A DNA stretch of 59,667 bases, taken from Lysobacterales bacterium (GTDB lineage Bacteria; Pseudomonadota; Gammaproteobacteria; Xanthomonadales; SZUA-36). The position numbers were made by a program, and so were the translations under genes. Below are positions 10,067 to 35,547 of the stretch, in pieces. The notes below the pieces were generated by a model. It did not search any database. It saw nothing but the letters and a program-made list of their open reading frames with translations, and had not been told where the DNA came from. Where the stretch lies: contig JAZFUZ010000221.1 in assembly GCA_036447475.1 (NCBI GenBank), positions 1-59,667 of the forward strand, read 5' to 3'. How positions within the stretch are numbered: position 1 is the stretch's first letter; every line of letters begins with the position of its first letter.

Positions 10067-10104
10067 ATCTGCCTGGGATTATAAAGGAATCCTTAAATCT
10101 GAAC

Positions 10105-11591
<1,487 letters not shown>

Positions 11592-14814: not shown

Positions 14815-14980
14815 ATGGCAGAAAAATTTGATGTAGTCGTAATTGGCGGCGTTCCATGCGGGTTCCTTCCCCTTCGCCGCCAACGACCACGCCCTCGCCG
14901 GCGGCCACGGCACCCTGTCCGAAGCCATTCATGAAGCAGCCCTGCACGTTGACAAGAGGGTGATACACCGGGTTAGTTGA
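14815..14980 (+). pseudogene. Collapsed remnant of a dihydrolipoyl dehydrogenase (E3, lpd) gene
   Basis: An AAAGGA RBS and ATG are followed by 'MAEKFDVVVIGGVPCGF' (compare Lpd 'KFDVVVIGGGPGGY'). After a frame change comes 'AANDHALAGGHGTLSEAIHEAALHVDKRVIHRVS*' (compare the Lpd C-terminus 'AEDIA..HAHPTLSEA..EAALAVD.RAIH'). About 400 internal codons are missing. Confidence 0.55.
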
Positions 14981-15046: not shown

Positions 15047-15601
15047 GTGAACAAAGCAATTCCTAATATTCTTGCCGCTTTACTTGCTCTGGTTTCCGCA
15101 AGCCCGGGGATGGCTTTGGACAAGGAGCCCCCATTCGAAAATATCAGCGTTGAATTTGAACTGCTTGACCGGGCCGGCAAGGTAGTTACTGAACTTGATC
15201 TGCGTGGGAGATATGTGTTGCTGGCGTTCGGATTTACCCGTTGCGCCCACATCTGTCCGATAATGGTGGCTAATATGGCCCTGACGCTGAACGTGACGGA
15301 CAAAAAAGCAATGGGTGTGTTCATCAGCGTCGACACGGAACGTGACACACCAGCCATCACACATGCCTATGCATCGGGTTTTCACGAGTCCATGGTGGGG
15401 CTGAGCGGAAGTCATGAGCAGCTGCGCTCAGCAGCCAACAATTTTGGCATCAGTTTTGTCGTGTCCAAGAGCCAGAAAGCCTATACAGTTGAACATACAT
15501 CCGATATTTTCCTGATCAGCCCTGAAGGAAAACTGATTGACGTGTTTGCACTCAATGCCTCACCACTGGAAATCGCCCAGGCCATGAAACACCAGCCATG
15601 A
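15047..15601 (+). CDS. SCO1/SenC-family copper chaperone or thiol-disulfide protein
   Basis: 184 aa with a GTG start. Signal peptide 'ILAALLALVSASPGMA', the CxxxC motif 'FGFTRCAHICP', and a downstream conserved His in 'YTVEHTSDIFLI'. Confidence 0.85.
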   Translation: MNKAIPNILAALLALVSASPGMALDKEPPFENISVEFELLDRAGKVVTELDLRGRYVLLAFGFTRCAHICPIMVANMALTLNVTDKKAMGVFISVDTERDTPAITHAYASGFHESMVGLSGSHEQLRSAANNFGISFVVSKSQKAYTVEHTSDIFLISPEGKLIDVFALNASPLEIAQAMKHQP

Positions 15602-15630
15602 ACCAAACGCCATCGCCATAAGCTGTTGCA

Positions 15631-16992
15631 ATGACCGCAATCGCCAGAATCAATTACACAAAACTCAGCATTGTCGCACTGATCAGCCTGATGATCGCAT
15701 CAGCCTGGCTGATTTTTCCTTACTTGATCCAGGGCAAAGAACTGATGCGAGGCGTCGGCAGCAAAGCAAGACTTATCAAGGGCGGCAATGTCTCTTTATA
15801 CCAAACGCGTTATCTGGTCGAACATGTCGATCTCGAGCTGATGGCAACCTTTGCCACTGCCGAATTCTTCCAGTACGTGGACCGGGCGGCGGTAGTTGGC
15901 AACTTGCGACCGGACCGGAACTTCATTTTCTTCGTCAGCGAAAACATCCACGAGGGCCAGCTGTCCTTCGAGTTGCCGGAAGTTTCATTGCACATGGGAG
16001 ACCGGGTCTATACGCCCGATATTTCCAGCGGCCCAAATCTCGCCGAGCATCACCGCATTACCCTGTACAGTTTTTCGAAAAGGGATGCGGCTGGTGAATT
16101 CATCGACATCAATAATTATGACAACATCAGGCTGCACGTCTCCAACCGCTACCTGGGCAGCACCCAGAAACTCACCTTTGTCGGCGTGTGGGAGGCGCCC
16201 TACGAATTACCCGAAGAACTTGCTTCACGTGCCGACATCACACCCGTTGCGATGATGGCTCTTGGTGCTGGGCTCTTGTCGTCTGTCATTACACCGTGCC
16301 TTTTACAATTAGTCGTGATATTCGGATCTATTATCGGAGCCTTTGCCACGGTTCCTGGTTCAACCAGCGCCGAGACGGCCCAGCTCCGTCCAATCATCCG
16401 CAGAAAGATCATGCTGATTGCACTGGCCTTCGTGGCAGGATTTACAATTTTGTACACGCTGGCAGGCGCCATTATTGGTGCTGTCGGTCATGGCGCTCAA
16501 CTGATATTTGCAGAATACAGCCGCGTTGTAGCCATTGTATCGGGCGTACTGGTTATTCTGATGGGCATCTGGGTCGGGATACGTGGCAGCAGGAATGATG
16601 TTTGTAAAATCCCGGATCGCCAGGCTATGAAATTTCAGAGCGCCCGCGACATGGTGGGTTCGATCCTCGTATCGTCGGGCTATGCCCTGGGATGTACGGC
16701 CTGTTTCGGCGGCGCCATCGTGGCGACCCTGATCATTTACGTCGGCGCCATCGGCAGCGCCACCATTGGTGCGGGGATCATGCTGACATTTTCAATCGGG
16801 GTGGCTATACCGTTCCTGATCTCCGCCTGGTACCTTTCAAGAATGAACAGTGTCTTGTTATTCCTTACTGAAAAAGCCAAAATCATAAGCATCCTGAGCA
16901 TGCTGCTGATTATCATCTTCGGGCTGATCCTGGTCACCGACAACTTCCATGTTGTCAGTGACATGATCTACCCGTTCCTGCGACTCCGTTAA
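15631..16992 (+). CDS. Membrane protein: unknown about 190-aa extracytoplasmic N-domain fused to a DsbD/CcdA-like thiol-disulfide transporter core
   Basis: 453 aa. An N-terminal TM is followed by a soluble region with no motif I recognise, then about 6 TM helices. Membrane-embedded cysteines occur in 'ITPCLLQLVVIF' and 'GCTACFGGAIV', resembling the CcdA/DsbD_2 pattern. Confidence 0.65.
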   Translation: MTAIARINYTKLSIVALISLMIASAWLIFPYLIQGKELMRGVGSKARLIKGGNVSLYQTRYLVEHVDLELMATFATAEFFQYVDRAAVVGNLRPDRNFIFFVSENIHEGQLSFELPEVSLHMGDRVYTPDISSGPNLAEHHRITLYSFSKRDAAGEFIDINNYDNIRLHVSNRYLGSTQKLTFVGVWEAPYELPEELASRADITPVAMMALGAGLLSSVITPCLLQLVVIFGSIIGAFATVPGSTSAETAQLRPIIRRKIMLIALAFVAGFTILYTLAGAIIGAVGHGAQLIFAEYSRVVAIVSGVLVILMGIWVGIRGSRNDVCKIPDRQAMKFQSARDMVGSILVSSGYALGCTACFGGAIVATLIIYVGAIGSATIGAGIMLTFSIGVAIPFLISAWYLSRMNSVLLFLTEKAKIISILSMLLIIIFGLILVTDNFHVVSDMIYPFLRLR

Positions 16993-17004
16993 GCCATACG
17001 CTGC

Positions 17005-18123
17005 ATGAAGAAACCCCTGTTATTGTGGCTGCTGCTCGCCGGCCAGGCTCTCGCCGGTGATGTGTTGGGTGTTGATATCAGCAACCCGCTGAAACTGCTG
17101 GTAGTCGGGGATCGCAGCGACAATATCATCGACGTGATCGATCTTGACAAAGGGAAAGTGGCGTACCGGTTTGAAACGACATTCTTCCCGGACAGGCTGA
17201 TCATTGCACCCTATGCACCCATCCTGATGTATACCAACACCGAGCACAGGCTGGCAGTTTTCTACGACCTTGAGACACGCCGGGAGATCAAAAGAGTTGA
17301 CTTACCGGTTACGCCTCGACACGTCGTGCTGGACACCACCGGGGGTCTGGTCGGGATAAGTGACAGTTTAAGTGGTGGCTTTGTACTGTTGTCAATGTAT
17401 GCGCAACGCGTCGTATTCTCGCTGCCGGATTTTCCACCGACAACGGATGTTCTTTTCGATCCGAATGAAGTCGATATCTATTACAGCAATAGTGCGACGG
17501 GGTCGATCGGCCTGCTCAATACCAATGTTCAAAAGTGGATTGAAATGCCTTTGGCAGAACAGCAGGGGCAGAATCTGTCCTCGCCCAGCCGCAGTCTGGA
17601 TGCGCGTCATATCTACGTCGCCAATGACACAACCGGCGAGGTGTACGGCCTCAACGCTTTTTCGAAAGTCATCTATAAAACTTTCAGGATCGGCTCAAAG
17701 CCGGCACGACCGTATACCACGCCTCAAGGATCCTTCCTCTACCTGATCGACCAGGAATCAGGCCGCGTAGTGTCAATGGAGCAGGGATCGTTCCGGGAAT
17801 ACGCAGACATCCAATTTGCCAAAGGAGTCAATTTGGTAACGGTTGGCCGGTTTGACCGTTTCAATCTGTTTCTCAGCACGGGACACAGCGAGTATTACGT
17901 TTACGACAATTTGAAAAAGCTCGTAGTGACCGAAGGAGTCTTCAGGGGCAAGCCCATTGCAGCACTTGGAGCGGCAGATGGTAAAACAGCGTACATTGCG
18001 TTTACAGATATTCCACAGCTGGCCATGTTCAATCTTGAGAAGCAGGCGATACGCTATTTTGATGCAACGGATAATGGCGCCGGATCATTTGCCATGGGCC
18101 TTTCAAACAATGTCTGTCATTGA
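17005..18123 (+). CDS. Secreted beta-propeller protein (YVTN/YncE-like repeats)
   Basis: 372 aa with signal peptide 'LLLWLLLAGQALAG'. It has recurring strand motifs such as 'RHIYVANDTTGEVYGLN' and 'GSFLYLIDQESGRVVSM'. No catalytic motif was recognised. Confidence 0.6.
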   Translation: MKKPLLLWLLLAGQALAGDVLGVDISNPLKLLVVGDRSDNIIDVIDLDKGKVAYRFETTFFPDRLIIAPYAPILMYTNTEHRLAVFYDLETRREIKRVDLPVTPRHVVLDTTGGLVGISDSLSGGFVLLSMYAQRVVFSLPDFPPTTDVLFDPNEVDIYYSNSATGSIGLLNTNVQKWIEMPLAEQQGQNLSSPSRSLDARHIYVANDTTGEVYGLNAFSKVIYKTFRIGSKPARPYTTPQGSFLYLIDQESGRVVSMEQGSFREYADIQFAKGVNLVTVGRFDRFNLFLSTGHSEYYVYDNLKKLVVTEGVFRGKPIAALGAADGKTAYIAFTDIPQLAMFNLEKQAIRYFDATDNGAGSFAMGLSNNVCH

Positions 18124-18215: not shown

Positions 18216-19094
18216 ATGAGAATTGGATTCGTAGGTTTGGGCGAGATGGCGCATGGGATTATCCCGCGCCTTATGCAAGCTGGACACGCCGTCACAGCTT
18301 GGAACCGCACACCCGGCAAAGGACAGTCGCTGGTCGATGCCGGCATGGCGATGGGCAACAGCCCGGCTGAAGTGGCGTTGAAATCGGATGCTGTATTTTC
18401 CTGTGTGACCAACTCGGCTGCGGTTGAAGCAGTGGCTCTGGGTGCGCAGGGAATCCTGAATGGTCTTGCCAAAGGCAGTATTTATATGGATCTGAGCACC
18501 ATTTCACCCATCGTTTCACGTAAGGTTTCTGCGGCATTCGCGAAGCGAGACCGGATCATGCTGGATACCCCGATTTCAGGCAGCCCCGTCAGCCTGGCCC
18601 AGGGCAAAGCCTCTGTCATGGTCGGTGGTGACAAGGAGGCTTTCGATGAGGTCAGAGACCTGTTGGGCGCGATCGGGCCCAAGGTGAGCTACATCGGTGA
18701 AAGCGGCCTGGCAGTCCAAACCAAGATTGGCATCAACCTGACCCTGATCGTAGAAATGGTCGCATTTTGCGAGGGAGTCGCCCTGGCTGAAAAGGGTGGC
18801 GTTGCACGCAAGATAGCCGTCGATGCGATGCTGAAAAGTGTAGTGGCATCTCCCGTAATGGGATATCGGGGTCCGTTTATCCTGGATATGCCGGACAAGC
18901 CATTGGCCAACGTTACTTTGCAGCAAAAAGACGCCATACTGGCCCTGGAACTGGCGCGCGAGTTGGGCATGCCAACACCCTTACTCGCAGCGGCGAACGA
19001 ATTGCTCAATGCCTGCCGGGGCATGGGCATAGACCACCGCGACTTCGTGACTGTCTACGATGTCTACTGCAGCCTGGGGGGGATAGAACATTGA
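18216..19094 (+). CDS. NAD(P)-dependent beta-hydroxyacid dehydrogenase (3-hydroxyisobutyrate dehydrogenase family)
   Basis: 292 aa with the Rossmann motif 'MRIGFVGLGEMAHGIIPRLMQAGHAVTAWNRT' and 'DTPISGSPVSLAQGKASVMVGG'. Confidence 0.85.
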   Translation: MRIGFVGLGEMAHGIIPRLMQAGHAVTAWNRTPGKGQSLVDAGMAMGNSPAEVALKSDAVFSCVTNSAAVEAVALGAQGILNGLAKGSIYMDLSTISPIVSRKVSAAFAKRDRIMLDTPISGSPVSLAQGKASVMVGGDKEAFDEVRDLLGAIGPKVSYIGESGLAVQTKIGINLTLIVEMVAFCEGVALAEKGGVARKIAVDAMLKSVVASPVMGYRGPFILDMPDKPLANVTLQQKDAILALELARELGMPTPLLAAANELLNACRGMGIDHRDFVTVYDVYCSLGGIEH

Positions 19095-19513
19095 AAACTG
19101 AAGCAAAACCCTATCGCATCAACATCAAGGATGTACCTTATGTGGGCGGCTTGAAAAAAGAAGACGGCTGGGTCGATATGAAGGTGCAGTTTCTAATCGA
19201 CAAAAAAACCACCAACTCCGAACGCATGCTGGTTGGCTGGACTGTTTTGGCTCCGGGCGCAGCACACCAGCAACACAAACATCATCATGCCGATGAGTTC
19301 TGGATCGTCATTAAAGGTAATGGCGTGATGTACACAGAAAACGGTGAAGAGCCGTCTGGCGAGGGAGATGTGGTGTTTACGCCAGCGGGGCATTGGCACG
19401 GCTTCAGGAACACCTCCGATGAAGACGTGGTGCTGGTCTGGGGCTGGGCCGGTGCCGCGTCTCTTGAAGATTCAGGCTATGCCGTTCCCGACGATCAAGA
19501 GCTTGGTTCGTAA
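19091..19513 (+). CDS. Cupin-domain protein
   Basis: 140 aa with a TTG start overlapping the upstream stop (ATTGA). The two cupin motifs are 'HQQHKHHHADEFWIVIKGNG' and 'GDVVFTPAGHWHGFRN'. Confidence 0.7.
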   Translation: MKTEAKPYRINIKDVPYVGGLKKEDGWVDMKVQFLIDKKTTNSERMLVGWTVLAPGAAHQQHKHHHADEFWIVIKGNGVMYTENGEEPSGEGDVVFTPAGHWHGFRNTSDEDVVLVWGWAGAASLEDSGYAVPDDQELGS

Positions 19514-19549
19514 TACGGTGTCCTGTTCGCTCAAGATTCCAGGGTGTTG

Positions 19550-20254
19550 ATGGCTGATTTTCAGCAAATCGACCAGCAAATTTTGCGCGGCATGACCACG
19601 CAACTAAAGCTGCGCGCCGCCCGTTTGAAAAACGGTGATTCGTCCTTGGGGTGGAAAATTGGCTTTGGTGCACCGGCAGTCATGGAAAGGCTGGGCATTC
19701 GAGCCCCGCTGCTGGGCTTTTTGAGCAAAAGTGCCTTGATCCCGTCCGGCCAAACGGTTGCGCTGCAAGATTTTAAACAAGCAGTGGCAGAGCCCGAAAT
19801 TGCGGTCCACATGGGTACCGACCTGGAGTCGGATGCTGACGAGGCTGCGGTACGAGCTTCGATCGCGGGCCTGAGTTCTGCGATCGAACTGGCCGATTTG
19901 AGTTTTCCGCCCAACGATGTCGAGCGCATCCTGGCCGGTAATGTCTATCAGCATAGCGTTATTCTTGGGCCAATGGACGCGGGCAGAGCTGGGGCCAGAC
20001 TGAATGGTCTATCGGCACGACTGGTAAAAGACGATGCCGAGATAGGAAAAACCACGGATATGGAAGCCAATACCGGGGTGATAATCGACCTCGTCCGCCT
20101 GGTCGCCGACTGCCTGGCCGGGTTTGGTCTGACGCTGCGTGCTGGTGAAGTCATAATCACAGGCTCTGTCATACCACCGGTCATGGTAGAGCAACCCTGT
20201 ACCATCGTTTTCAATCTGGAACCTTTTGCATCCATTGGGGTAAGCTTCAAGTGA
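19550..20254 (+). CDS. Fumarylacetoacetate-hydrolase-superfamily hydratase/decarboxylase (2-keto-4-pentenoate hydratase-like)
   Basis: 'LGWKIGFGAPAVM', 'AEPEIAVHMG' and 'SAIELADLSF' parallel the MhpD/HpcG motifs. ATG 19550 was preferred over the GTG/TTG codons at 19544 and 19547. Confidence 0.7.
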   Translation: MADFQQIDQQILRGMTTQLKLRAARLKNGDSSLGWKIGFGAPAVMERLGIRAPLLGFLSKSALIPSGQTVALQDFKQAVAEPEIAVHMGTDLESDADEAAVRASIAGLSSAIELADLSFPPNDVERILAGNVYQHSVILGPMDAGRAGARLNGLSARLVKDDAEIGKTTDMEANTGVIIDLVRLVADCLAGFGLTLRAGEVIITGSVIPPVMVEQPCTIVFNLEPFASIGVSFK

Positions 20255-20294
20255 AATTTCAGAGCAGGACAGGACGTTCGCGAGAGAAACAAGC

Positions 20295-21332
20295 ATGATT
20301 TGTCCCTTTGCACAGCCGATCGCGCCTGGGTGTCGAACCCGGTCATTGCCGGTTTTTCTAATGCTCCTCGCGACATTGATATCGACTGGATGTGAACGAG
20401 AAGCAAGAGATAGAGAAATCATCCTGATCAAGTTTCCGCATGTGACAGCGCCTATCACACCAAAGGGACAGGCTGCGGAATATTTCAGACAGGCCGTAGA
20501 AAAGCGCCTGTCAGGACGGGTCAAGGTTGAAGTTTTCCCATCCAGCCAGTTGATGAATGATGATGACTCTTTGGAGGCGCTGGCATTCGGAGAGGTTGAA
20601 ATGATCGCCATATCCCTTTCCAAGCTCAATCGGCTGACACATAGATTCCAGGTGTTTGATTTACCTTTTCTGTTTCCCGGACTTGAGGCGGTGGAAGCGT
20701 TTCAGGACAGTGATGCCGGTAAGTCACTACTCGATGAATTAGCTGATCGTGGCATCCAGGGCCTGGCGTTCTGGCACAACGGCATGAAACATATGCTCGG
20801 TCCGGTTGCCATGCGAAAGCCTGAAGATGCTGTCGGCCTGAGGTTCAGGATCCAGGACTCGGATGTGATTCAGGAAGAGATTCTGCAAATCGGTGGCATT
20901 CCGCAAAAGATGGCCTTTAGTGAGATTTACATGGCACTGCAGACCGGTGCAATCGACGCCCAGGAAAACACCTGGTCAAATTCCTATGCTCAAAAATTCT
21001 ATGAAGTCCAGCCCTACATGACGCAAACCAACCATGGCTATGCCGGCTACATGGTTGCGGTGAATTCTGATTTCTGGATTGCTCTGCCTGCGGATATCCG
21101 CACTGAACTTGATTTGATTGTGGCGGAGACCGCCGTTTGGGCCAAACAGCGATCAAATGCCATCAACCAGGAAAGCCTGGAGAAGATCCTTGCAAGCGGT
21201 CAATCGGAATTGGTTGAATTAAGCAGCGAAGAACTCGCCGTGTGGCAAACAGCCATGCAACCGGTATGGGAAAAGTTCGAACAGGATATTGGAGCGGATC
21301 TCATCCAGGCCGCGCTCAGCGCATCGCAGTAA
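20295..21332 (+). CDS. TRAP-transporter substrate-binding protein (DctP family), orphan copy, lipoprotein-type signal
   Basis: 345 aa with lipobox 'LISTGC'. It is closely similar to the DctP at 34515 (e.g. 'RVKVEVFPSSQLMNDDDSLEALAFGE', 'RFQVFDLPFLF', 'GAIDAQENTWSN'). No adjacent DctQ or DctM gene is present. Confidence 0.8.
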   Translation: MICPFAQPIAPGCRTRSLPVFLMLLATLISTGCEREARDREIILIKFPHVTAPITPKGQAAEYFRQAVEKRLSGRVKVEVFPSSQLMNDDDSLEALAFGEVEMIAISLSKLNRLTHRFQVFDLPFLFPGLEAVEAFQDSDAGKSLLDELADRGIQGLAFWHNGMKHMLGPVAMRKPEDAVGLRFRIQDSDVIQEEILQIGGIPQKMAFSEIYMALQTGAIDAQENTWSNSYAQKFYEVQPYMTQTNHGYAGYMVAVNSDFWIALPADIRTELDLIVAETAVWAKQRSNAINQESLEKILASGQSELVELSSEELAVWQTAMQPVWEKFEQDIGADLIQAALSASQ

Positions 21333-21367: not shown

Positions 21368-21976
21368 TTATTCAAACCCCAAATCCTGGTCCGTTGGCCA
21401 GGCGTGGCAGGTTACGCATGCAGCTGGAACTTCACGCGCCTGGTGACAGCTGATGCAACTTGCCATTGCTCTTACTGCCTTGATTTCCGCCATTTGGTCC
21501 AACTGACTCACATCACCGTGGCAGGTCTCACACTGCGTGCCTGCGTCCAGGTGTGCTTTGTGGCTCCAACTGACTCCGGGTGTGATTGTATAAACACGCA
21601 CCCACGGGATTGGCTGGCCTGACTCGGAAAATTCCTGCAAGTTTTTAATTGCTGGCCTGTCCTTTGCGATGGTGCGGTGGCATGACATGCATGTTTCAGT
21701 GACTGGAAACGTCATCCGGGTACCAGGGTCGGGATTGACATGACAAATTTGGCATGCCATCCCTGAAGCCAGATGAGTTTTGTGGCTGAATGGCAGCGGC
21801 TGAACCGGTGCCGGATGTGGTGCGATATTATCCGGCACCGCTGGCACAGTGTCGGCTGGGATTTGTTGCGCGGCGGCGGGCATGTTTGCAATGAGTGCGA
21901 ACAGCAGCACACACAGCGCGATTTTCAGGCAGATGGCCGAGTTCACCCTTGTATTTGAATAATTTGATCTTTTCAT
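21368..21976 (-). CDS. Pentaheme c-type cytochrome (class III / ActA-like), N-terminal anchor or signal
   Basis: 202 aa with five CXXCH sites: CQICH, CMSCH, CETCH, CISCH, CVTCH. 'FSHKTH' and 'WSHKAH' distal-His motifs are present. Its start lies 2 nt after the upstream flavoprotein stop. Confidence 0.8.
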   Translation of the reverse strand: MKRSNYSNTRVNSAICLKIALCVLLFALIANMPAAAQQIPADTVPAVPDNIAPHPAPVQPLPFSHKTHLASGMACQICHVNPDPGTRMTFPVTETCMSCHRTIAKDRPAIKNLQEFSESGQPIPWVRVYTITPGVSWSHKAHLDAGTQCETCHGDVSQLDQMAEIKAVRAMASCISCHQAREVPAACVTCHAWPTDQDLGFE

Positions 21977-21978
21977 GG

Positions 21979-23619
21979 TTACACGTTCGCCCCGCTAGCC
22001 CTGCCCACGACTTCCTCGATGCTGCTGCCATGGTCCTTAAGGATCACGCTGGCTGCATTGCGCCCGGGTTGGCCTCTTACAGATCCACCGGGAGCGGTGC
22101 AAGCACCTGTCTGGTAAAGCCCCGGAATGGGCATCCGGTAATCAGCCCAACCCGGCACCGGGCGCATATCTCCGGACTGGGCAGCGCCATATGCCGCAGC
22201 ATGCACGCTACCGCGCCACATGGCGGGGTTCATACGTTCAATATCAAGCGGGCTCTGGATGAACTTAGCCAGGATTTTGTCCTCGGTCAGATTAGGGCAG
22301 AACGTTCTGAAATAATCGAACACATCTGCGGCGACTTTATGCTTGATGCTATCCCAGTGCTGCGGGCCTTCTTTGAGTGCGTAGGGCAAATTACCCTCGA
22401 GCTTCAGTGTGTGGTGTCCGGCTGGAGCCCGGGTTGGATCTGCAATACTTGGGCAGACAACTTGCAGCGGCAGACCCTCCAGGTTGATTTCGCCTGTCGC
22501 GTGTTGATAATCGGAGCGCAAAATTCGTTCCGGATCAGCCATCAGTGCCGCTTCAGTGGGTGAGATGGTGCTGCCGTCAGCGAGCTCATATTTAGGCGGC
22601 TCCGAAATGGCGTAGTGAAAAGCGAACATAGCGTGTTCCGGCTGCAGCAACCGTACATTCTCCAGAAAACCGTCACCCCAGAGTCGTTTTGGTGCCATCT
22701 CCACGAGGTGCTTGATATGGATCGTTGAAACAACGCTCTTGCGAGCACGATACCGGGTACCATCCAGGCATTCGACGCCACGGCACCTGCCATTCTCGAT
22801 GATGAGTTGCGCCACGGGCATATTCGTCTGGATCACACCGCCATTGGCCTCGATCACCCTGCCCAGGGCAAGCGGCAGCATGCCGGAGCCACCCTTGGGC
22901 ATGGGGCGGCCATTTAATTGATGCCTGATTGCCGTAAATAACTGCCTGCCCGTGTTGGGATGTCCTGCCGGAATGCTGCTAAATCGGCCTACGGCTAGGT
23001 GGAAAGTGCGAATGTAGTGGTTTTCGAATGTTTTGTTGACAAGATCGTAACCGGACATGCCAAATCTGCGGCGCCAAACGCCACTATCCGGGATCTCAGA
23101 ACCAGCCTTTTTGGCAGTGTTGTAGGCCTGTATTTCAGCCACCAGCCGCTTGAACGTGTCCGCATCCTTACGCGAGTGTTTTGCGTACTCTGTGTAGGTC
23201 CGCTCGATGTCTTTCCACACCGTGATCGAAGCCTTGTCCGGGAACGAGATGTGCATGATTGGATCCGGATGGATGTATTCCAGACCGTACTCGTACAGAT
23301 TGAGTTCATTATCGCGCAGTACCGGGCTGGATTGAATGAAGCCGTGCACCGAAGAGCAGAGGTCTTCCTTGAACCCCGGCAGGCATACCTCAGCCGTCTT
23401 GCAGCCACCACCAATGGTGGACCGTCCCTCGAGCACCAACACACTGAACCCTGCTTTGGCAAGATAGGCTGCGGTGATCAGGCTGTTGTGTCCGGCACCT
23501 GCCACCACAAAATCAAATACGGAGTCATCCCGAAATATTTTCTGGAAAGCCGTTGCATGAAAAGATATGGAGCTTAGCGCCGCCCCTTTGATAAAATCCC
23601 TTCGGGATACCGCCTTCAT
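21979..23619 (-). CDS. Tat-exported FAD-dependent oxidoreductase (phytoene-desaturase / amine-oxidase, COG1233-like family)
   Basis: The twin-arginine signal 'MKAVSRRDFIKGAALSS' is preceded by a GGAGG RBS 5 nt upstream. The dinucleotide fold is 'FDFVVAGAGHNSLITAAYLAKAGFSVLVLEGRSTIGGG'. ATG 23619 was preferred over GTG 23634. Confidence 0.8.
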   Translation of the reverse strand: MKAVSRRDFIKGAALSSISFHATAFQKIFRDDSVFDFVVAGAGHNSLITAAYLAKAGFSVLVLEGRSTIGGGCKTAEVCLPGFKEDLCSSVHGFIQSSPVLRDNELNLYEYGLEYIHPDPIMHISFPDKASITVWKDIERTYTEYAKHSRKDADTFKRLVAEIQAYNTAKKAGSEIPDSGVWRRRFGMSGYDLVNKTFENHYIRTFHLAVGRFSSIPAGHPNTGRQLFTAIRHQLNGRPMPKGGSGMLPLALGRVIEANGGVIQTNMPVAQLIIENGRCRGVECLDGTRYRARKSVVSTIHIKHLVEMAPKRLWGDGFLENVRLLQPEHAMFAFHYAISEPPKYELADGSTISPTEAALMADPERILRSDYQHATGEINLEGLPLQVVCPSIADPTRAPAGHHTLKLEGNLPYALKEGPQHWDSIKHKVAADVFDYFRTFCPNLTEDKILAKFIQSPLDIERMNPAMWRGSVHAAAYGAAQSGDMRPVPGWADYRMPIPGLYQTGACTAPGGSVRGQPGRNAASVILKDHGSSIEEVVGRASGANV

Positions 23620-23777
23620 CCAAGCCTCCCACACGATGCTGCAATCAGTCTATAATGCACGAAAATACAAACGATTGCATTAATCGTTTCAATTAGTTGG
23701 ACAATGCTCGGAGGAATTTGTAGTATCGCCGTTTATTCCGAAAGACCTGAACACGACTGAATGGTAACAAGACTCAT

Positions 23778-24779
23778 ATGAACGAAAAAATACAGGATAT
23801 CAAGCAAGATACCCGGCTCAAACTCTACCGCTCAATGCTTGAATGCAGACAGATGGAACAACGCGCCTATGACCTGTTCATGGAGAATCTGGTCAAGGGA
23901 ACCAGCCATCTTGGGCTCGGTCAGGAAGCAATTGCCGCCGGTTTCGGGCTAGCCATGCGCCCCGATGACTACACGTTTTGTACCTACCGCGGGCATAACC
24001 ACACATTGGTGCGTGGCGCTTCCATGACCGGTATTCTGGGCGAACTGATGGGTCGCGATTGTGGCTTGATGCGTGGTAAAGGCGGCTCCATGCACCTGAC
24101 CAGTGTGGAACATGGCGTAATGGGGTCGTATGCGATCATCGGAGCTCATCTGCCAATTGCAGCCGGCGCAGCCTGGTCAGCCCAATACCGGGGCACCAAA
24201 CAGGTATCAGTGTGCTTTTTTGGTGATGGCACAACCAATATAGGTGCCTTCCACGAAGCTTTGAATCTTGCAGCTGTATGGTCACTACCGGTGGTATTCG
24301 TGTGCGAGAACAACCTGTATATGGAATACACCGCTATTGCTGATGTCACAGCAGTGGCGAACCCTGCCGCCGACCGGGCAGCGGCCTATGGCCTGGAGTC
24401 CATTTTGATTGATGGTAATGATGTGGATATCGTGTACGCTACGGCAAGTAAGGCTTTGCAACGGGCGCGCAAAGGCGAAGGACCCAGCTTGATCGAAGCA
24501 CTAACCTATCGCCACCATGGCCACTCCCGAGCTGATCCCGGAAAGTATCGGCCCGATGATGAGGTTGCTATGTGGAAAGAGCAGCGTGATCCAGTCATAA
24601 ATTATCGGGTCCGCTTACTCGAACTGGGCATCGCTGAAGCGGATCTTGTTGCCATTGAAACTGAAACCGATGAATTGGTGGACAGAGCAACCAAGGAGGC
24701 CCGCAACAGCCCACCCCCACCGCTGGAGATAGCGATGACGGATGTCTGGTCGGATGGGAGTTCATCATGGCGCAACTGA
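23778..24779 (+). CDS. 2-oxoacid (pyruvate/acetoin-type) dehydrogenase E1 alpha subunit, TPP-binding
   Basis: 333 aa with the TPP motif 'GDGTTNIGAFHEALNLAAVWSLPVVFVCENN', plus 'YRGHNH' and 'YRHHGHS'. Confidence 0.85.
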   Translation: MNEKIQDIKQDTRLKLYRSMLECRQMEQRAYDLFMENLVKGTSHLGLGQEAIAAGFGLAMRPDDYTFCTYRGHNHTLVRGASMTGILGELMGRDCGLMRGKGGSMHLTSVEHGVMGSYAIIGAHLPIAAGAAWSAQYRGTKQVSVCFFGDGTTNIGAFHEALNLAAVWSLPVVFVCENNLYMEYTAIADVTAVANPAADRAAAYGLESILIDGNDVDIVYATASKALQRARKGEGPSLIEALTYRHHGHSRADPGKYRPDDEVAMWKEQRDPVINYRVRLLELGIAEADLVAIETETDELVDRATKEARNSPPPPLEIAMTDVWSDGSSSWRN

Positions 24780-25744
24780 GCTACAGGCAAGCGGTCGCTG
24801 CCGGAATCGCCCAGGAATTGAGGCGTGATTCGAATGTCGTATTCCTGGGTGAGGATGTTGCGTCCGCCGGAGGCGTATTCAAAGCCACCGGGGGCTTACT
24901 GGACGAGTTCGGGCCAATACGGGTCAGAGACTGCCCAATTTCCGAGCAGGCCATCATCGGTGCCACCATGGGCGCGGCCATGACCGGGCTTCGCCCGATC
25001 GCGGAAATCATGTTTTCCGACTTCCTTGCAGTCTGCTGGGATCTCATTGCAACTCAGATTGCCAAGACTCGCTACATGACCAACGGTCAGTGTTCTTTAC
25101 CCCTGGTGATCAGGATGGCCAACGGAGCGGGTTCGCGCTTTGGTGCCCAGCATTCGCAAAGTGTGGAGAACTGGGCCATGGCCATTCCGGGTCTCAAGGT
25201 GGTTGCGCCATCCAGTCCTGCCGATGTCAAAGGTCTGCTGGCCGCAGCTGTGCGTGATCCGGATCCGGTACTGTTTTTTGAACAGAAATCCTTGTACGGC
25301 ATCAAGGGTGAGGTACCGGAAGGTGACCATGTTGTACCACTTGGCAAAGCCAAAATTCTACGACAGGGCGATGATGTAACCATTGCTGCACTGGCTGCGA
25401 TGGTGCCAAGAGCGGTCAAAGCGGCAGAAACCCTGTACAGCGAATACGGCATATCGGCAACCGTCATTGATGTGCGTTCGCTGGTGCCACTGGATACGAC
25501 CACTATTTTTGAATCCGTATCTGCGACCGGCCGACTGGTCACAGTGGAGGAAAACCCGCGCCTGTGCGGCTGGGGTGCTGAATTGGCTTCTCTGGTGGCC
25601 GAAGAGTTGTTTTGGGATCTGGAAGGGCCGATTGTGCGGGTGACAACACCACATATACCCCTGCCCTCTGCCGACAACTTGGAGGATGCGGTATTGCCCA
25701 GCGTCGAACGCATTGTAGATAGCGTTCGCCGGTTGGCGGACTGA
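24767..25744 (+). CDS. 2-oxoacid dehydrogenase E1 beta subunit
   Basis: 325 aa with 'VFLGEDV' and 'RVRDCPISEQAIIGATMGAAMTGLRP'. It overlaps the alpha gene by 13 nt. Confidence 0.85.
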   Translation: MAQLSYRQAVAAGIAQELRRDSNVVFLGEDVASAGGVFKATGGLLDEFGPIRVRDCPISEQAIIGATMGAAMTGLRPIAEIMFSDFLAVCWDLIATQIAKTRYMTNGQCSLPLVIRMANGAGSRFGAQHSQSVENWAMAIPGLKVVAPSSPADVKGLLAAAVRDPDPVLFFEQKSLYGIKGEVPEGDHVVPLGKAKILRQGDDVTIAALAAMVPRAVKAAETLYSEYGISATVIDVRSLVPLDTTTIFESVSATGRLVTVEENPRLCGWGAELASLVAEELFWDLEGPIVRVTTPHIPLPSADNLEDAVLPSVERIVDSVRRLAD

Positions 25745-25757
25745 GGAATAGACAAAC

Positions 25758-26975
25758 ATGAAGGTACTGATGCCCCAATTGGGTGAAACGGTAAATGAAG
25801 GCACCGTTGTTACCTGGCACAAAAAGCCAGGTGATGAAGTTACCAAAAACGAGATTCTTCTCGATGTGGAAACCGAAAAGGTCGCGGTCGAGATTCCTGC
25901 ACCGATAGCGGGCATACTGATCCGCATCCTGGTGGATGCAGGCGAGACCGTAAATGTCGGTACGGTGTTGGCAGAAATCAGCGGCCCGGATGATTCGCCT
26001 GACGATGAAAGCAATCTGCAATCACCGCAAGCTGCCGGCGAAGTCACTCAAACAGAATCGGTAAACACACAAGCGGCGCCGGCGCCGGCTGGTAAGGACG
26101 GCGAGCGATTGTCTCCAGCAGTGCGACGACTCATTGCAGAGAAGGGCCTGGATGGATCACTGATACAAGGCACCGGCCGGGATGGTCGACTGACCCGGCG
26201 CGATGTTTTATCTTATCTGGCAAGCCAACAGTCCGGGACGCCCGCCGAGCAACCTGCACTTGCCGCAACGGATGAACGACTGCCTTTCGATCGTATCCGG
26301 CGTGCAACCGCGGCACACATGCTGCGCTCCAAGTCAACCAGCCCGCATGTATTGCAAACCATAGAAGCGGATTTCAGTGCGGTTGACCGGCTGCGCTTAC
26401 AAAAACGCGACAGCTGGAGGGAGGATCATGGTTTTTCTTTGAGCTACCTGCCTTTCGTCGCCCGCGCAGTTTGCCTGGCAATCGGCGAATTTCCTCACAT
26501 CAACGCCAGTGTTGATGGAGACACTCTGGTCGTGCACAGCGCAATCAATCTGGCCTTCGCGGTGGACCTGAACTTTGCAGGGCTGGTTGCGCCTGTCATC
26601 CGGGATGCCGCAGAGCTGAAAGTTTCTGCATTGGCGCACCGGATCAATAATGTGGTCAAGCGGGCACGAAATAATAAACTGAGTGCGGACGACCTGAGCG
26701 GAGGAACCTATACGCTTTCAAACCCAGGGCCATACGGAACCCTTTTCACCGCACCGATCATCAACCAGCCACAAGTCGCAATCCTGTCGATTGACGGCAT
26801 CGCCAAGCGACCGGTAGTGATTGAAGGTCCTGAGGGTGATTCCTTGGGAATCCGCCCCGTGGGCGTGCTTGCGCAATCATTCGACCACCGTGCGTTTGAT
26901 GGCGCCTACTCGGCTGCTTTCCTGAACCGGCTAAAGTCCCTGCTTGAGCAACAAGACTGGGCACTGGAGTTTTGA
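25758..26975 (+). CDS. Dihydrolipoamide acyltransferase E2 (one lipoyl domain, E3-binding domain, catalytic domain)
   Basis: 405 aa with lipoyl motif 'LDVETEKVAVEIPAP', subunit-binding domain 'SPAVRRLIAEKGLDGSLIQGTGRDGRLTRRDV', and catalytic 'SFDHRAFDGA'. Confidence 0.85.
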   Translation: MKVLMPQLGETVNEGTVVTWHKKPGDEVTKNEILLDVETEKVAVEIPAPIAGILIRILVDAGETVNVGTVLAEISGPDDSPDDESNLQSPQAAGEVTQTESVNTQAAPAPAGKDGERLSPAVRRLIAEKGLDGSLIQGTGRDGRLTRRDVLSYLASQQSGTPAEQPALAATDERLPFDRIRRATAAHMLRSKSTSPHVLQTIEADFSAVDRLRLQKRDSWREDHGFSLSYLPFVARAVCLAIGEFPHINASVDGDTLVVHSAINLAFAVDLNFAGLVAPVIRDAAELKVSALAHRINNVVKRARNNKLSADDLSGGTYTLSNPGPYGTLFTAPIINQPQVAILSIDGIAKRPVVIEGPEGDSLGIRPVGVLAQSFDHRAFDGAYSAAFLNRLKSLLEQQDWALEF

Positions 26976-26977
26976 TC

Positions 26978-28744
26978 ATGACAACAAAATTTATCGTCGC
27001 GTCTGTACTTCCAGCAGTTATTGCCGGGGCCATCGCCACTGCAGCTGCTGCCGGCGATCCAATGGATACAGCTACTATCGATGAACTCGTGCAGCGTGGC
27101 GAGGAGCTGTACATGCGGCCCATCTCCTGTTGGGTCTGTCATGGTGAAAACGGCGAAGGGCGGGTTGGCCCATCCCTGCTCAATGGTCAGACGGCAGCGG
27201 ACATCTATGACCAAATCCAGAGCAACCCGCAAATGGGCATGCTTGAGCGAGAACTGAAGCCGACGGATGAAGACCTGGTCGCGATTGCACTGTACCTGCG
27301 CAAGCTCGCGAACCTACCGATGAATGAGGAGTTGCCCAATGAACTCCACAAGTCCCTGGCCCAAATGAAGGCCCGACAGTCCGCAACGGTAGTTTATCCG
27401 AAATCGGAGCGGGATCTGGCCGTTGAAAAGATCGAGTCCTTTGCAACGGTATTGTCCGGCTGGCAACGTAAGGCCAAACTGGGGAGCCTCGCCAAATCCT
27501 ATAAAGTGCGGGTAGTGCAGACTTTTGCACCGGGTGAGCCGATTTTTAAGCCGGAGAAGGGCAAAACTTATTTTTATGAAAACGTTGGCTATTCCAGCAA
27601 CCCATCACTGAAGCCCGAGGGCTTCGTCAATGCAGCGTCAAGTCAGTTCGTGATCGGTGATGCCCAGAGTATGGAGGTGATTGTCAGCAACGAACTGCCA
27701 GCGTACCTCCGTTCAGCCGTGCATAGCACCATGGTTTCACCGGATGGCAAATGGGTTTATATCGTCAGTTCGAAGGAAGGCGGCATTGATGGCAAGGCGA
27801 CCCTGCGGACCCCGGCCACCGTCATCAAGGCGGATGCGCTCACACTGCAACCGGTAAAGCAGTTCACCATCGGTGGTCGTTTTCACCATGGACAGGTGTT
27901 CCGCGACAAGTACCTTCTGATCGATACCTTTGCACGCGATCCGGATGGCCTGGACGTCATGTTGTTCGACCCTGAGACCGATACGATCCTCGGTGGTGTG
28001 CGCGACGAAGATCTTGGGGGAGCCACCTATACAGCCTGGACCGATGACGAGTTTATTTACGTCCTCATGGAACCTACCGGCTATGCACCTGGTAGCGGCA
28101 CCGGGATGACTGCGATCCGGGACTTTTACCGGGGGAGGCTCACCACGATGCGACCTTTCTGGATCGCCCGCATCGACCCGGAGACCTGGGAAGTGGTGCA
28201 GGAGTATCCCTTCCCGGGTTTCCGCGGCAACTGGATCACCATTGATTCCAAAAAGGAATTCATGTATGTCACAGGAGCCGGCACGTCGAATATCAGCAAG
28301 ATCAACATAAGCACCGGAGAAATTGCCTGGGCCGCAGGTACCGGTATCGGGCCCTATGGCTGCGGTCTCAATGCTGATGAATCTGAGATCTGGATTGCCG
28401 ATAAGGGGGAGGGAACCGGTCATCTCGGACGAACCATTACCGTGCTGGAAACGGCCACCGGGCAGATTCTTGACACCCTGTTTTCCGGTTACAAGGTAGA
28501 TCATGTGCTGCTGTCGCCAAATGGCAAGGAAATGTGGGCGACCAGTAATGGCGAGGGCCGTATCTACGTGTTTGATGCGGTAAGCCGCGAGCAGATCAAG
28601 GTCATCGATATGCCCCAGTTCGGCGATCCACACGGCCTCGTGTGGGTGCATTACGACGAGGATGGCAATGCGCGCGTGATTCGCGATCAGGGTGGTTTCC
28701 ACAATGGCATAAACCCCCACAAGGGCAGGCCGCTGGACTATTAA
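26978..28744 (+). CDS. Secreted mono-heme cytochrome c fused to a beta-propeller domain (cd1-nitrite-reductase-like architecture, function unknown)
   Basis: Signal peptide 'KFIVASVLPAVIAGAIATAAAA', heme site 'CWVCH', and C-terminal propeller-type repeats ('EFMYVTGAGTSNISKINISTGE', 'EMWATSNGEGRIYVFDAVS'). The ATG lies 2 nt after the E2 stop. Confidence 0.7.
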   Translation: MTTKFIVASVLPAVIAGAIATAAAAGDPMDTATIDELVQRGEELYMRPISCWVCHGENGEGRVGPSLLNGQTAADIYDQIQSNPQMGMLERELKPTDEDLVAIALYLRKLANLPMNEELPNELHKSLAQMKARQSATVVYPKSERDLAVEKIESFATVLSGWQRKAKLGSLAKSYKVRVVQTFAPGEPIFKPEKGKTYFYENVGYSSNPSLKPEGFVNAASSQFVIGDAQSMEVIVSNELPAYLRSAVHSTMVSPDGKWVYIVSSKEGGIDGKATLRTPATVIKADALTLQPVKQFTIGGRFHHGQVFRDKYLLIDTFARDPDGLDVMLFDPETDTILGGVRDEDLGGATYTAWTDDEFIYVLMEPTGYAPGSGTGMTAIRDFYRGRLTTMRPFWIARIDPETWEVVQEYPFPGFRGNWITIDSKKEFMYVTGAGTSNISKINISTGEIAWAAGTGIGPYGCGLNADESEIWIADKGEGTGHLGRTITVLETATGQILDTLFSGYKVDHVLLSPNGKEMWATSNGEGRIYVFDAVSREQIKVIDMPQFGDPHGLVWVHYDEDGNARVIRDQGGFHNGINPHKGRPLDY

Positions 28745-28782
28745 GTAGGACCAGCCCACATAGGACCCAAGAGGACTGCAAG

Positions 28783-29028
28783 TCCGACGATGCGCACGAG
28801 GCCTGGAACCCGGAAGGGCTCGCACAGAGAACCATTCGGGCGCTCAAGCAACATGTTCCAGATTTGGGGATCATCACCGATGTGGTGCTCAGGGAGGTCG
28901 CTCTTGATCTGCAGGAAGGCGCTGACATGGTTATGGAATCCCTGACCTGCATCAAGCGTGCTGGAGCTGACGCCATACTCAGTTATTACGCCCTCCAGGC
29001 AGCCGCATGGATCAAGGCTCGGGCTTGA
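28783..29028 (+). pseudogene. Collapsed remnant of porphobilinogen synthase (hemB): three conserved blocks joined in frame
   Basis: 'DDAHEAWNPEGLAQRTIRALKQHVPDLGIITDVVL' + 'REVALDLQEGADMVM' + 'ESLTCIKRAGADAILSYYALQAAAWIKARA*'. These match three separated blocks of remembered Pseudomonas HemB: '[32 protein letters not shown]', 'HEVAADLAEGADMVM' and '[24 protein letters not shown]'. About 250 residues are missing, including active-site regions. Confidence 0.6.
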
Positions 29029-32937: not shown

Positions 32938-33225
32938 ATGGCCATTCCACAACTTTTGGTGCACAACAAAACCGACAACGTCGGCGTTGTCGTGGTTGAA
33001 AATCTCAAAGCAGGTGATGAAATGCTCTGCATCGTCACGGAAGACAATTCTGACTTCACGCTGGCGGTCGGGCAGGATGTGCCCATCGGCCATAAAGTCG
33101 CACTGGCTGACCTCAAAGAGGGTGACACGATCATCAAGTATGGAGAAGATATTGGCCGCGTTATCGCAGCAATCTCCGCCGGTGATCATGTTCATGTCCA
33201 CAACATAAAAACCAAGCGCTGGTAA
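32938..33225 (+). CDS. UxaA-family lyase small subunit (SAF domain; SuyA-like)
   Basis: 95 aa. '[21 protein letters not shown]' and '[24 protein letters not shown]...[11 protein letters not shown]' are typical of the SAF N-terminal domain of altronate/galactarate dehydratases and sulfolactate sulfo-lyase alpha. Confidence 0.75.
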
Positions 33226-33239
33226 GGGAGTATTTGACC

Positions 33240-34412
33240 ATGTCTACACAAGATACTTTCATGGGTTATCGGCGCGAAAACGGTCGCGTCGGCATACGCA
33301 ACTTTGTCGTAATCCTGCCACTGGATGACATATCGAACGCAGCCTGCGAGGCAGTCGCTAACAACATCCAGGGCACCATTGCCCTACCCCATGCCTACGG
33401 CCGCCTGCAATTCGGCGAGGATCTGGATCTGCATTTCCGTACCATGATCGGAACCGGATCCAATCCCAATGTCGCAGCTTGTGTCGTTATCGGCATCGAA
33501 CCGATCTGGACCCAAAAAGTGGTGGATGGAATCGCCGCAACAGGTAAACCGGTGTTTGGTTTTGCCATTGAAAAAAATGGTGACATCAACACCATCGCTA
33601 AAGCTTCACGCAAAGCAAAGGATCTGGTGCACTGGGCTACTGAGCTTCAACGCGAACCATGCGACATCGCTGACCTCTGGGTTTCTACCAAATGCGGTGA
33701 GTCTGATACCACCTCAGGTATCGGTTCCAACCCTACCGTCGGAAATATGTATGACAAGCTGATTCCAAAAGGTATTTGTGGCGTATTCGGTGAGACTTCG
33801 GAAATCACTGGCGCAGAACATCTGTGCGTAAAACGGGCTGCAACACCGGAAATCGGTGAAAAATTCATGAGCACCTTCCAGGCCTACCAAGATGATGTGA
33901 TCGAAGCCCACAAGACCACTGATCTATCCGATAGCCAGCCGACCAAAGGAAACATTGAGGGAGGACTTTCCACGATTGAAGAGAAAGCTTTCGGTAATCT
34001 GGAAAAAATCGGCCACCACGTTTCATACATTGATGTACTCGGTCCGGCTGAAGAACCTACCAAAGGACCGGGGCTCTATTTTATGGATTCATCATCTGCG
34101 GCAGCCGAATGTGTCACTCTGATGGCAGCTGCAGGCTTCGTCGTTCATGCATTTCCAACCGGTCAGGGAAACATCATTGGTAACCCCATCCTGCCTGTTA
34201 TCAAGCTGACTGCGAACCCACGTACCATGCGCACCATGTCTGAACATATAGATGTTGATGTAACGGGAATCCTCACCCGTGAACTCACCATAAGCCAGGC
34301 AGGTGACAAACTGATTGAAATGGTGGTTAAGACGTCTAACGGTCGAATGACTGCTGCTGAAGCGCTGGGTCACAAAGAATTCGTCATGACCAAGCTTTAT
34401 CGCAGCGCATAA
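33240..34412 (+). CDS. UxaA-family lyase large subunit (SuyB-like / altronate dehydratase C-terminal domain)
   Basis: 390 aa with '[20 protein letters not shown]', '[12 protein letters not shown]' and '[18 protein letters not shown]', matching the UxaA C-terminal family. Confidence 0.8.
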
Positions 34413-34514
34413 TTGTGGTGATTAACATGGAGAAGGATCAAGTATGGACAAATAGAATCCGGCTGATAAAGTAGCGGTGCCTAAAATAAATACTTGGGAG
34501 TAGTGTTTCAGACC

Positions 34515-35543: not shown

Positions 35544-35547
35544 ATAA

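Follow-up and report, generated by a model that had tools for sequence, protein, structure and literature searches.

Operons for acetoin dehydrogenase and for heterotetrameric pyruvate dehydrogenase (PDH) encode E1alpha, E1beta and E2 subunits in tight order, and the E3 subunit for such E1alpha-beta-E2 operons is often encoded elsewhere. The operon described here has the same subunit set, motifs and tight gene order, but it closes with the gene for an exported redox protein, P0001, in which a monohaem cytochrome c is fused to a beta-propeller. It lies in a 59,667-nucleotide (nt) stretch of DNA from a Lysobacterales bacterium; a marine source, and this whole stretch, called the window below, is contig C221 of a 2.16-Mb metagenome-assembled genome (MAG) that consists of 228 contigs and is 76% complete.

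Few propeller enzymes with a metal in the tunnel are known (NosZ, TcDH and MtoX), and each of them opened part of the nitrogen or sulfur cycle. TcDH of Thioalkalivibrio (PDB 5F75) has a seven-bladed propeller with three Cu ions in the tunnel and a separate cytochrome c552 as acceptor (PMC9456337, PMC6504805), and its active-site list comprises Lys103, His135, His136, Gln156, His206, Glu288, Asp314, His381, His437, His482, His528, Asp529 and Arg544 (PMC6504805). In MtoX the copper ligands are His89, His90, His140 and His412, and a SCO1/senC gene adjoins the enzyme gene (PMC5739008). The mnxG operon of Pseudomonas putida GB-1, as tabulated in its source, contains a YVTN propeller, two SCO1/SenC genes and a cytochrome c fusion (PMC11409713, Table 4). 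Set beside these systems, P0001 may be a copper-dependent periplasmic oxidoreductase that is wired to the respiratory chain and whose gene came to occupy a variable 3'-terminal slot in a catabolic operon; we hold this interpretation tentatively, with confidence a little short of even.

As shown in Table 1, the list of open reading frames (ORFs) gives four plus-strand genes arranged head to tail. The E1alpha and E1beta genes overlap by 13 nt, E1beta and E2 are 13 nt apart, and the fourth gene begins 2 nt after E2. The sigma-70-like match ahead of E1alpha was the sole one on the plus strand between 23000 and 29300, and the scanned region held 3 such sites compared to 4.6 expected from shuffles, which is not significant alone. 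A weak consensus scan found no promoter-like site between E2 and the fourth gene, and the four weak plus-strand terminator-like sites (24990, 25077, 25583 and 27864) were all within coding sequence. The four genes very probably form a real operon that is co-expressed in this lineage, and the fourth gene is probably translationally coupled to E2. The initial annotation had described a canonical E1alpha-beta pair and a lipoyl E2 with a full domain set, followed 2 nt past the E2 stop by the gene for an exported protein with one CWVCH site and a C-terminal propeller. Pfam matches and motifs bore out the first part of this description, and the ORFs, Pfam and an AlphaFold2 model bore out the second.

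Table 1. Features of the window, with coordinates counted from its first letter (aa, amino acids).
Feature	Coordinates	Strand	Evidence or remark
Sigma-70-like promoter match, weak	23698..23726	+	9/12 consensus positions; ~50 nt upstream of E1alpha
E1 alpha subunit, 333 aa, of a heterotetrameric thiamine-diphosphate 2-oxoacid or acetoin-type dehydrogenase	23778..24779	+	PF00676 (E1_dh) 250.8 bits; GDG...ENN motif
E1 beta subunit, 325 aa	24767..25744	+	PF02779 (Transket_pyr) and PF02780 (Transketolase_C)
E2 dihydrolipoyl acyltransferase, 405 aa	25758..26975	+	PF00364 (Biotin_lipoyl), PF02817 (E3_binding) and PF00198 (2-oxoacid_dh)
GGAG ribosome-binding site, within the E2 3' end	26966..26969	+	8 nt ahead of the fourth-gene ATG; read from the sequence
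Exported monohaem cytochrome c-propeller fusion P0001, 588 aa	26978..28744	+	Pfam cytochrome c families only, residues 40-109
SCO1/SenC-family copper chaperone, trio gene 1	15047..15601	+	PF02630 120.1 bits; CAHICP motif, later VEHT His
DsbD/CcdA-like membrane protein, 453 aa, with N-terminal periplasmic part, trio gene 2	15631..16992	+	PF02683 38.2 bits; PF13386 36.7 bits
Exported propeller-like protein P0271 (c2), 372 aa, trio gene 3	17005..18123	+	No Pfam family; C-terminal NNVCH
Collapsed lpd (E3) remnant, outside the operon	14815..14972	+	Pieces match both ends of the whole lpd in genome G065
Open frame overrunning the fourth-gene end, with hemB (ALAD) remnant past the stop at 28744	28642..29028	+	PF00490 59.3 bits; best stretch profile positions 287-317 of 317

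The P0001 protein has a hydrophobic N-terminal leader at about residues 1-26 (MTTKFIVASVLPAVIAGAIATAAAAG) that lacks a twin arginine; a haem c domain implies Sec export. The single CWVCH haem site occupies residues 51-55 (nt 27128-27142), and Met86 is the probable sixth haem ligand. In the AlphaFold2 model, which has a mean predicted local distance difference test score (pLDDT) of 86.8, a helical cytochrome domain is followed by an all-beta propeller at about residues 165-588 whose modelled fold is consistent with seven blades. The propeller matched no propeller Pfam family, lactonase families included. The profile check of the protein against known families, which had been proposed with the initial annotation, returned only the cytochrome c Pfam domain and placed the protein in no well-characterised family, and no description of the cytochrome-propeller family or of the helper trio discussed below was found in a literature search that left most subscription journals outside.

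Conservation among 64 copies of the family is concentrated in the propeller. H249, H303, H304, H509 and H552 are kept in 63-64 of the 64 copies and D331, K476, E478 and D508 in every one; Y351 and Y460 are nearly invariant, and the haem-site residues C51, C54 and H55 together with M86 are kept in 54-57. In the secondary structure of the AlphaFold2 model the five invariant histidines start the innermost strand of successive blades, and we infer from the model that they line the propeller tunnel. The invariant residues comprise an HH pair, Lys, Glu, Asp and five His, and the family profile matched TcDH homologues at E values of 8e-8 to 8e-5, over two histidine-bearing blades only.

The structural search (VIA) returned Z scores of 24-31 for many seven-bladed propellers. 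The YVTN S-layer protein 1l0q (Z 30.6, root-mean-square deviation 2.6, 293 residues) was followed by 6-phosphogluconolactonases and the periplasmic gluconolactonase PpgL (Z 28.6-29.2), YncE 3vgz (Z 25.8), NosZ (Z 25.1), SBP56 2ece (Z 24.9, 335 residues) and TcDH (Z 23.9, 321 residues). The match extends over most of the propeller and places it in the YVTN/YncE-type seven-bladed fold class, and the family profile matched 1l0q at an E value of 7e-47. Assignment to the clade III lactonase-type NosZ proteins (NF052460) was considered and rejected, with 21.6 bits against a cut-off of 700 over residues 398-449 only.

The first three genes and the genome as a whole supply the domains of E1alpha, E1beta and E2 and the E3 gene that belong to a 2-oxoacid dehydrogenase complex. 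What we take to be the thiamine-diphosphate motif of E1alpha (GDG...ENN) is present, and the presumed lipoyl-lysine and catalytic motifs of E2 (ETEK and DHRAFDG) are both intact. E1beta scored 358.7 bits with NF006667, over the subfamily cut-off of 321, while E1alpha scored 335.1 bits with the PDH equivalog model TIGR03182, under the cut-off of 393.85, and the best NCBIfam models for E2 were SucB-type and also under cut-off (322 against 449 bits). The equivalog cut-offs for pyruvate dehydrogenase proper were reached by neither E1alpha nor E2, and the solved chain closest to E1alpha was mitochondrial PDH E1alpha (208 bits). The three genes would encode an accessory PDH- or acetoin-type E1alpha-beta/E2 complex that borrows its E3 from an lpd gene elsewhere. 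AceE-type PDH was found over cut-off in 3 of the 4 other carrier genomes searched and as a cut-off fragment in the fourth, which implies that the E1alpha-beta/E2 set is an extra complex in these related carriers; it was not found in the window's own MAG, which is 76% complete. Genes for an M24 hydrolase, an HIBADH-like dehydrogenase, LacI regulators and TctC usually accompany this E1-E2 family, and the presence of the M24 hydrolase, the HIBADH-like dehydrogenase and the LacI regulator sets the operon apart from those of acetoin dehydrogenase and PDH. The M24 gene that usually precedes the family was also considered as DddP, an identity that was rejected at 100-109 bits compared to a cut-off of 600.

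The lack of an E3 gene in the operon had been pointed out at first. The observation stood, as a profile search found no lpd match on contig C221, but it poses no puzzle. The proposed check for a functional lpd elsewhere in the genome located one on contig C27 (6573-7943) that scored 494.2 bits with TIGR01350, over the curated cut-off of 408.8, and the genome also has two weaker lpd paralogues. Because this full lpd sits on another contig, the lack of E3 in the operon is an ordinary case of E3 being encoded elsewhere in the genome.

When 185,579 species genomes were scanned, 53 loci with relatives of P0001 came up. The E1alpha-E1beta-E2 genes are directly upstream in 9 of these loci (L001, L005 and L007-L013) and not in the other 44, and the same gene order was found in one metagenome locus, L078. 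Of 10 loci, the window included, 9 have the ATG of the cytochrome-propeller gene at -4 to +2 nt from the E2 stop; in L013 the distance is 58 nt. The E2-linked proteins are 58-89% identical to P0001, and leaders typical of exported proteins are present in all ten E2-linked copies. In a maximum-likelihood tree of the 64 copies, obtained by a quick search, the ten E2-linked copies fall into two clades, one of 3 rows and one of 7, both well supported; a single change on the tree can explain them all, but the support for the joining branch is only 61. The close packing of the E1/E2 genes and a hemoprotein gene in one unit, which had been noted from the window alone, is matched by an E2/cytochrome junction that recurs in 10 further loci.

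Beyond these loci, at least 764 metagenome clusters belong to the family at E <= 0.001 among the candidates scored, and they are annotated solely as 'c-type cytochrome' or 'YncE family'. Judging from record titles, the family is found in Woeseiaceae, Rariloculaceae, Arenicellaceae and Porticoccaceae, of which the Woeseiaceae at least are abundant in marine sediments. The family is common in marine metagenomes and rare in reference genomes. No relatives of P0001 were found in 120 other sampled genomes of the window's order, one of them of the same genus, or in 400 sampled genomes of its class, and an E1alpha orthologue was found in 1 of 399 sampled genomes, at a contig end; these sets are samples and not censuses. 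In two alphaproteobacterial loci, L048 (7929-14195) and L049 (7964-17195), the family forms tandem arrays, with 4 and 6 copies respectively. The match of these copies begins only near residue 143, so that they are seemingly without the cytochrome domain; the arrays have an ABC peptide-type transporter and a YncE-like propeller as neighbours. Genes with a DUF6152 domain also recur near family members (L003, L020, L023, L034, L036, L040, L045, L046 and others; clusters c16, c25 and c28).

Upstream of the operon, three genes encode a SCO1/SenC protein, a DsbD-like protein and a second propeller, referred to as the trio. The SCO1/SenC gene has the PF02630 domain together with the CxxxC motif and the conserved His that we assume to define SCO1 proteins. 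The extreme C-terminus of the helper propeller, NNVCH, is invariant in 10 of 10 aligned sequences (alignment A2) and could be a metal-binding tail. Neighbourhood clustering showed that the trio recurs right after family members or closes their tandem arrays. A SCO1 homologue directly follows a family member or closes a tandem array in 13 of the 53 loci, and tblastn detected the DsbD-like gene in 18. Of 29 other genomes with the family, 26 (5/5 and 21/24) have a close homologue of the third trio gene, two have distant homologues only and one has none, whereas it was found in 0 of 120 order-level genomes that lack the family. The trio lies upstream of E1alpha on the same strand in the window and in genomes G001, G005, G006 and G007, and the interval from c2 to E1alpha ranges from 5.6 to ~27 kb. 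Long 'c2' ORFs of 487-851 aa were considered as fusions of DsbD-like and c2 proteins and rejected, as tblastn shows separate genes. A complex prediction that paired propeller residues 165-588 (A1) and the helper propeller (A2) scored 0.00 and 0.00, which is no verdict either way.

In the mechanism that we propose, the fourth gene would be co-transcribed with the E1 and E2 genes, with probable translational coupling, and its product would be exported by Sec. The class-I haem c domain would pass electrons to or from the seven-blade-type propeller, where a ring of H249, H303-H304, D508-H509 and H552, with Y351 and Y460, on the inner strands would hold a copper centre. Its loading in the periplasm would fall to the trio of SCO1/SenC, DsbD-like protein and second propeller at 15047-18123. 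Recruitment into the variable slot after E2 would have taken place in a Woeseiaceae-type lineage, and in the window's genome the gene would have arrived with a block that is missing from a same-genus relative. The exported enzyme would act on a small compound of the same catabolic route, which would be its functional tie to the E1/E2 complex.

Several observations weigh against this mechanism. A metagenome scan from the E1 side gave 596 E1alpha relatives, and the best 80 were kept, at 68-84% identity. E2 was counted as adjacent when it lay within 1.5 kb after E1alpha with E1beta between; among these best 80 of 596, 27 loci had an adjacent E2, and 22 of those had at least 600 nt beyond it. The fourth gene was absent from 21 of the 22, and only L078 had a cytochrome-propeller gene. 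From the E1 side the link to the cytochrome-propeller is therefore rare, in agreement with the first impression that the pairing is unusual. The slot after E2 holds an aldehyde dehydrogenase gene in L093 and a metallo-beta-lactamase-fold gene in L118, and in the closest relative, L075 (E1alpha 84%), E2 is followed by an ORF on the opposite strand, with no cytochrome-propeller match found in the 477 nt left; these three loci are close relatives that share upstream genes with the window's operon. The expectation that the adjacency of E2 and propeller would be conserved in other genomes thus held for 9 of the 53 loci and for L078 and failed for G065, L075, L093 and L118, so that the adjacency is in part absent in relatives, an outcome that had been named beforehand as counting against it. 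In addition, the fold searches do not discriminate function, with lactonases, the YVTN S-layer protein, NosZ, SBP56 and TcDH all at Z 24-31 and with dozens of unrelated seven-bladed propellers scoring alike in Foldseek as well as in VIA. The family has five invariant histidines compared to seven in the TcDH active-site list (PMC6504805). The trio lies within 8 kb in only 18 of the 53 loci, and genome G004, with three family copies, has no homologue of the third trio gene at E <= 1e-15. The haem c domain or a cytochrome oxidase could instead be the client of the SCO1 and DsbD-like proteins.

The main rivals are that the adjacency has no meaning beyond inheritance and that the propeller is a docking cytochrome without a cofactor. 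According to the first, a mobile cassette landed after E2 once and was then inherited, and the E1-E2 complex and P0001 serve unrelated processes. The low count of 1 in 22 related E1-E2 loci and the variable slot after E2 favour this explanation, as do the many other contexts and tandem arrays in which the family is found, the position of the operon in a block missing from G065, and the failure to find the family in the 400 sampled class genomes. We consider it doubtful. The junction is kept at -4 to +2 nt in 9 of 10 loci despite divergence to ~58-60% identity, which would be hard to maintain without selection for co-expression, and the E2-linked copies are one orthologous group, or nearly so.

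The second rival takes P0001 as an electron-carrier cytochrome whose propeller docks periplasmic dehydrogenases or ligands, like the methylamine dehydrogenase heavy chain or YncE. Both of these are metal-free and are among the close fold matches, no propeller Pfam family was matched, and paralogues of P0001 adjoin many different dehydrogenases, including a PQQ alcohol dehydrogenase, a Mo-hydroxylase with a 2Fe-2S subunit, and an FAD-linked oxidase. However, a ring of His, Asp, Lys, Glu and Arg residues that is invariant in 64 of 64 copies suggests chemistry more than docking, the copies in L048 and L049 keep the propeller while seemingly lacking the cytochrome domain, and a trio containing SCO1 co-occurs with the family. 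We therefore regard docking as unlikely.

A bolder form of the copper interpretation is distinctly unlikely. It would make the proteins a new family of copper-dependent periplasmic dehydrogenases that have their own three-part maturation system and act on an acetoin-type cleavage product. Maturation would involve the SCO1 chaperone, the DsbD-like protein as a reductant channel, and the helper propeller with its invariant Cys-His end. The enzyme would replace the cytoplasmic aldehyde dehydrogenase of the sister operon in L093, and a small diffusible acetoin-type cleavage product would be oxidised outside the cytoplasm, with the electrons passing straight into the respiratory chain.

It is very unlikely that P0001 is a lactonase-type hydrolase, metal-independent or Ca/Zn-dependent, with a haem domain that is sensing or structural. 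The ranking of 6-phosphogluconolactonases and PpgL in the fold search is in keeping with such an activity, and so are the sugar-acid-type genes nearby (a GMC oxidoreductase, a split galactarate-dehydratase-family pair and TRAP transporters). The lactonase Pfam families were unmatched, however, the retention of the haem site and Met86 in most copies argues for electron transfer, and the link to SCO1 would be left unexplained.

The NirS, NirN and NirF proteins have the same domain order as P0001, with an N-terminal cytochrome c followed by a propeller. The initial impression that the overall layout resembles NirS/NirN was upheld by Foldseek, in which NirN (6rte, E 5e-15) and cd1 NirS were the best full-length matches, and by the closest named Atlas clusters, which are cd1-type (0.93-0.94). 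A few family members have precomputed PF02239 hits, the family profile matched NirF at an E value of 2.7e-6, and a true NirS-like gene is present elsewhere in the window's own genome (C7:287-1468, 495 bits with PF02239). In contrast to these likenesses, the TM-scores of the Foldseek matches were low (0.40-0.43), and the best alignments of the propeller are with seven-bladed folds, while eight blades are the rule in cd1 propellers. P0001 had no PF02239 (Cytochrom_D1) match at E <= 0.001, and a PF02239 scan of its own genome hit C7 and C111 but not the P0001 gene. The haem d1 synthesis gene NirJ was over cut-off in just 1 of 5 genomes searched, and G002 and G003, complete chromosomes that carry family members, have neither NirJ nor a full cd1 domain. 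Membership of P0001 among the cd1-type relatives of NirS, NirN and NirF, with a propeller that binds haem d1 or its precursor, is thus largely refuted and extremely improbable. A second true cd1 NirS-like gene is found in G001 (C1:2058599-2059777, 486 bits), and it and the gene on C7 are in genomes with no NirJ found over cut-off, the window's own MAG being incomplete.

The preferred interpretation, a copper-dependent periplasmic oxidoreductase, would have consequences beyond this locus. If it were shown what the family oxidises or reduces, and why one of its branches is locked to an oxo-acid dehydrogenase operon, a periplasmic step of marine carbon or sulfur turnover that has so far gone unrecognised could come to light, as could a new class of clients for SCO1-type copper chaperones. 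Should the metal idea fail, what is left is a lineage-specific curiosity of gene order.

The region around the operon was compared with two related genomes. The dead lpd-like sequence at 14815 that had been pointed out initially was confirmed as a remnant by comparison with the whole lpd genes of G065 and G129. G065 (same genus; GyrA 93% identical) holds sucA-sucB-lpd at the matching site, and directly after these come the aldehyde and alcohol dehydrogenase genes found at 50-53 kb of the window. In G129 (to which L001 belongs; GyrA 94%) the SCO1 gene has a whole lpd 2.7 kb upstream. Seen against both genomes, the remnant is a decayed neighbour and not a subunit gene that the operon has lost. 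This site may be where the genes for 2-oxoglutarate dehydrogenase were lost; a search of the window's MAG, which is 76% complete, found no SucA homologue, from which no conclusion is drawn. The sucA-sucB-lpd genes of G065 span 6196-11868 of L072. G129 carries the operon region at 88% nucleotide identity and G065 is without it, and the operon thus sits in a block with a patchy, transfer-like distribution. The lpd and hemB remnants bracket the block from SCO1 to the cytochrome-propeller gene, and the frame that holds the hemB remnant overlaps the last 100 nt of that gene.

Divergent from E1alpha, the minus strand at 21368-23634 encodes a CrtO-like FAD oxidoreductase (551 aa) and a QrcA/c7-type multihaem cytochrome (202 aa). 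Both are present in G129, and in metagenome locus L075 the CrtO-like oxidoreductase gene likewise precedes E1alpha (80% identity). In G129 (L155 = G129:C221, reverse-complemented, 8748-10764) the helper propeller matches over its first 157 residues only and is followed by a second CrtO-like FAD oxidoreductase paralogue, and the genes found at 18216-21332 of the window are missing. Downstream of the operon, the window contains a split galactarate/altronate-dehydratase-family pair of 95 aa and 392 aa (32938-34412), a TRAP transporter next to it (34494-37436) and, ~3 kb past the transporter, a TauE/SafE sulfite-exporter-family gene (40304-41053). The split pair resembles what we take to be the layout of the two-subunit sulfolactate sulfo-lyase, and the pair, the TRAP transporter and TauE/SafE may form an organosulfonate route. 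A tie of the operon to these SuyAB-like and TauE genes (32.9-41 kb) was set aside, as the genes are not near the operon in other loci.

Among the known copper systems, MtoX is, like P0001, an exported propeller enzyme, and SBP56, to which it belongs, is among the structural matches given above. It differs in that P0001 has no SBP56 Pfam match (presumably PF05694) and that MtoX has no haem domain. MtoX is encoded in an SCO1/senC-mauG operon, and no mauG was seen in the family neighbourhoods examined. The mnxG operon has an exported YVTN-type propeller and SCO1/SenC alongside a periplasmic or extracellular copper enzyme, and the same two components are found in the trio at 15047-18123. The client here would be the cytochrome-propeller and not a multicopper oxidase, a DsbD-like protein is added, and the helper propellers of the two systems are likened by description. 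In contrast to TcDH, where the cytochrome acceptor is a separate protein, the cytochrome of P0001 is fused to the propeller. TcDH is exported by Tat, whereas the leader of P0001 has no twin arginine, and the copper genes next to TcDH are Cop or Cus and not SCO1 (PMC6504805). TcDH is, on the other hand, also periplasmic, its tunnel residues include an adjacent His-His pair together with Lys, Glu and Asp (PMC6504805, Figure 4 legend), and it passes electrons to a class-I cytochrome c (PMC9456337). Of all enzyme families, TcDH alone gave a sequence-profile hit to the histidine-bearing blades of the cytochrome-propeller family.

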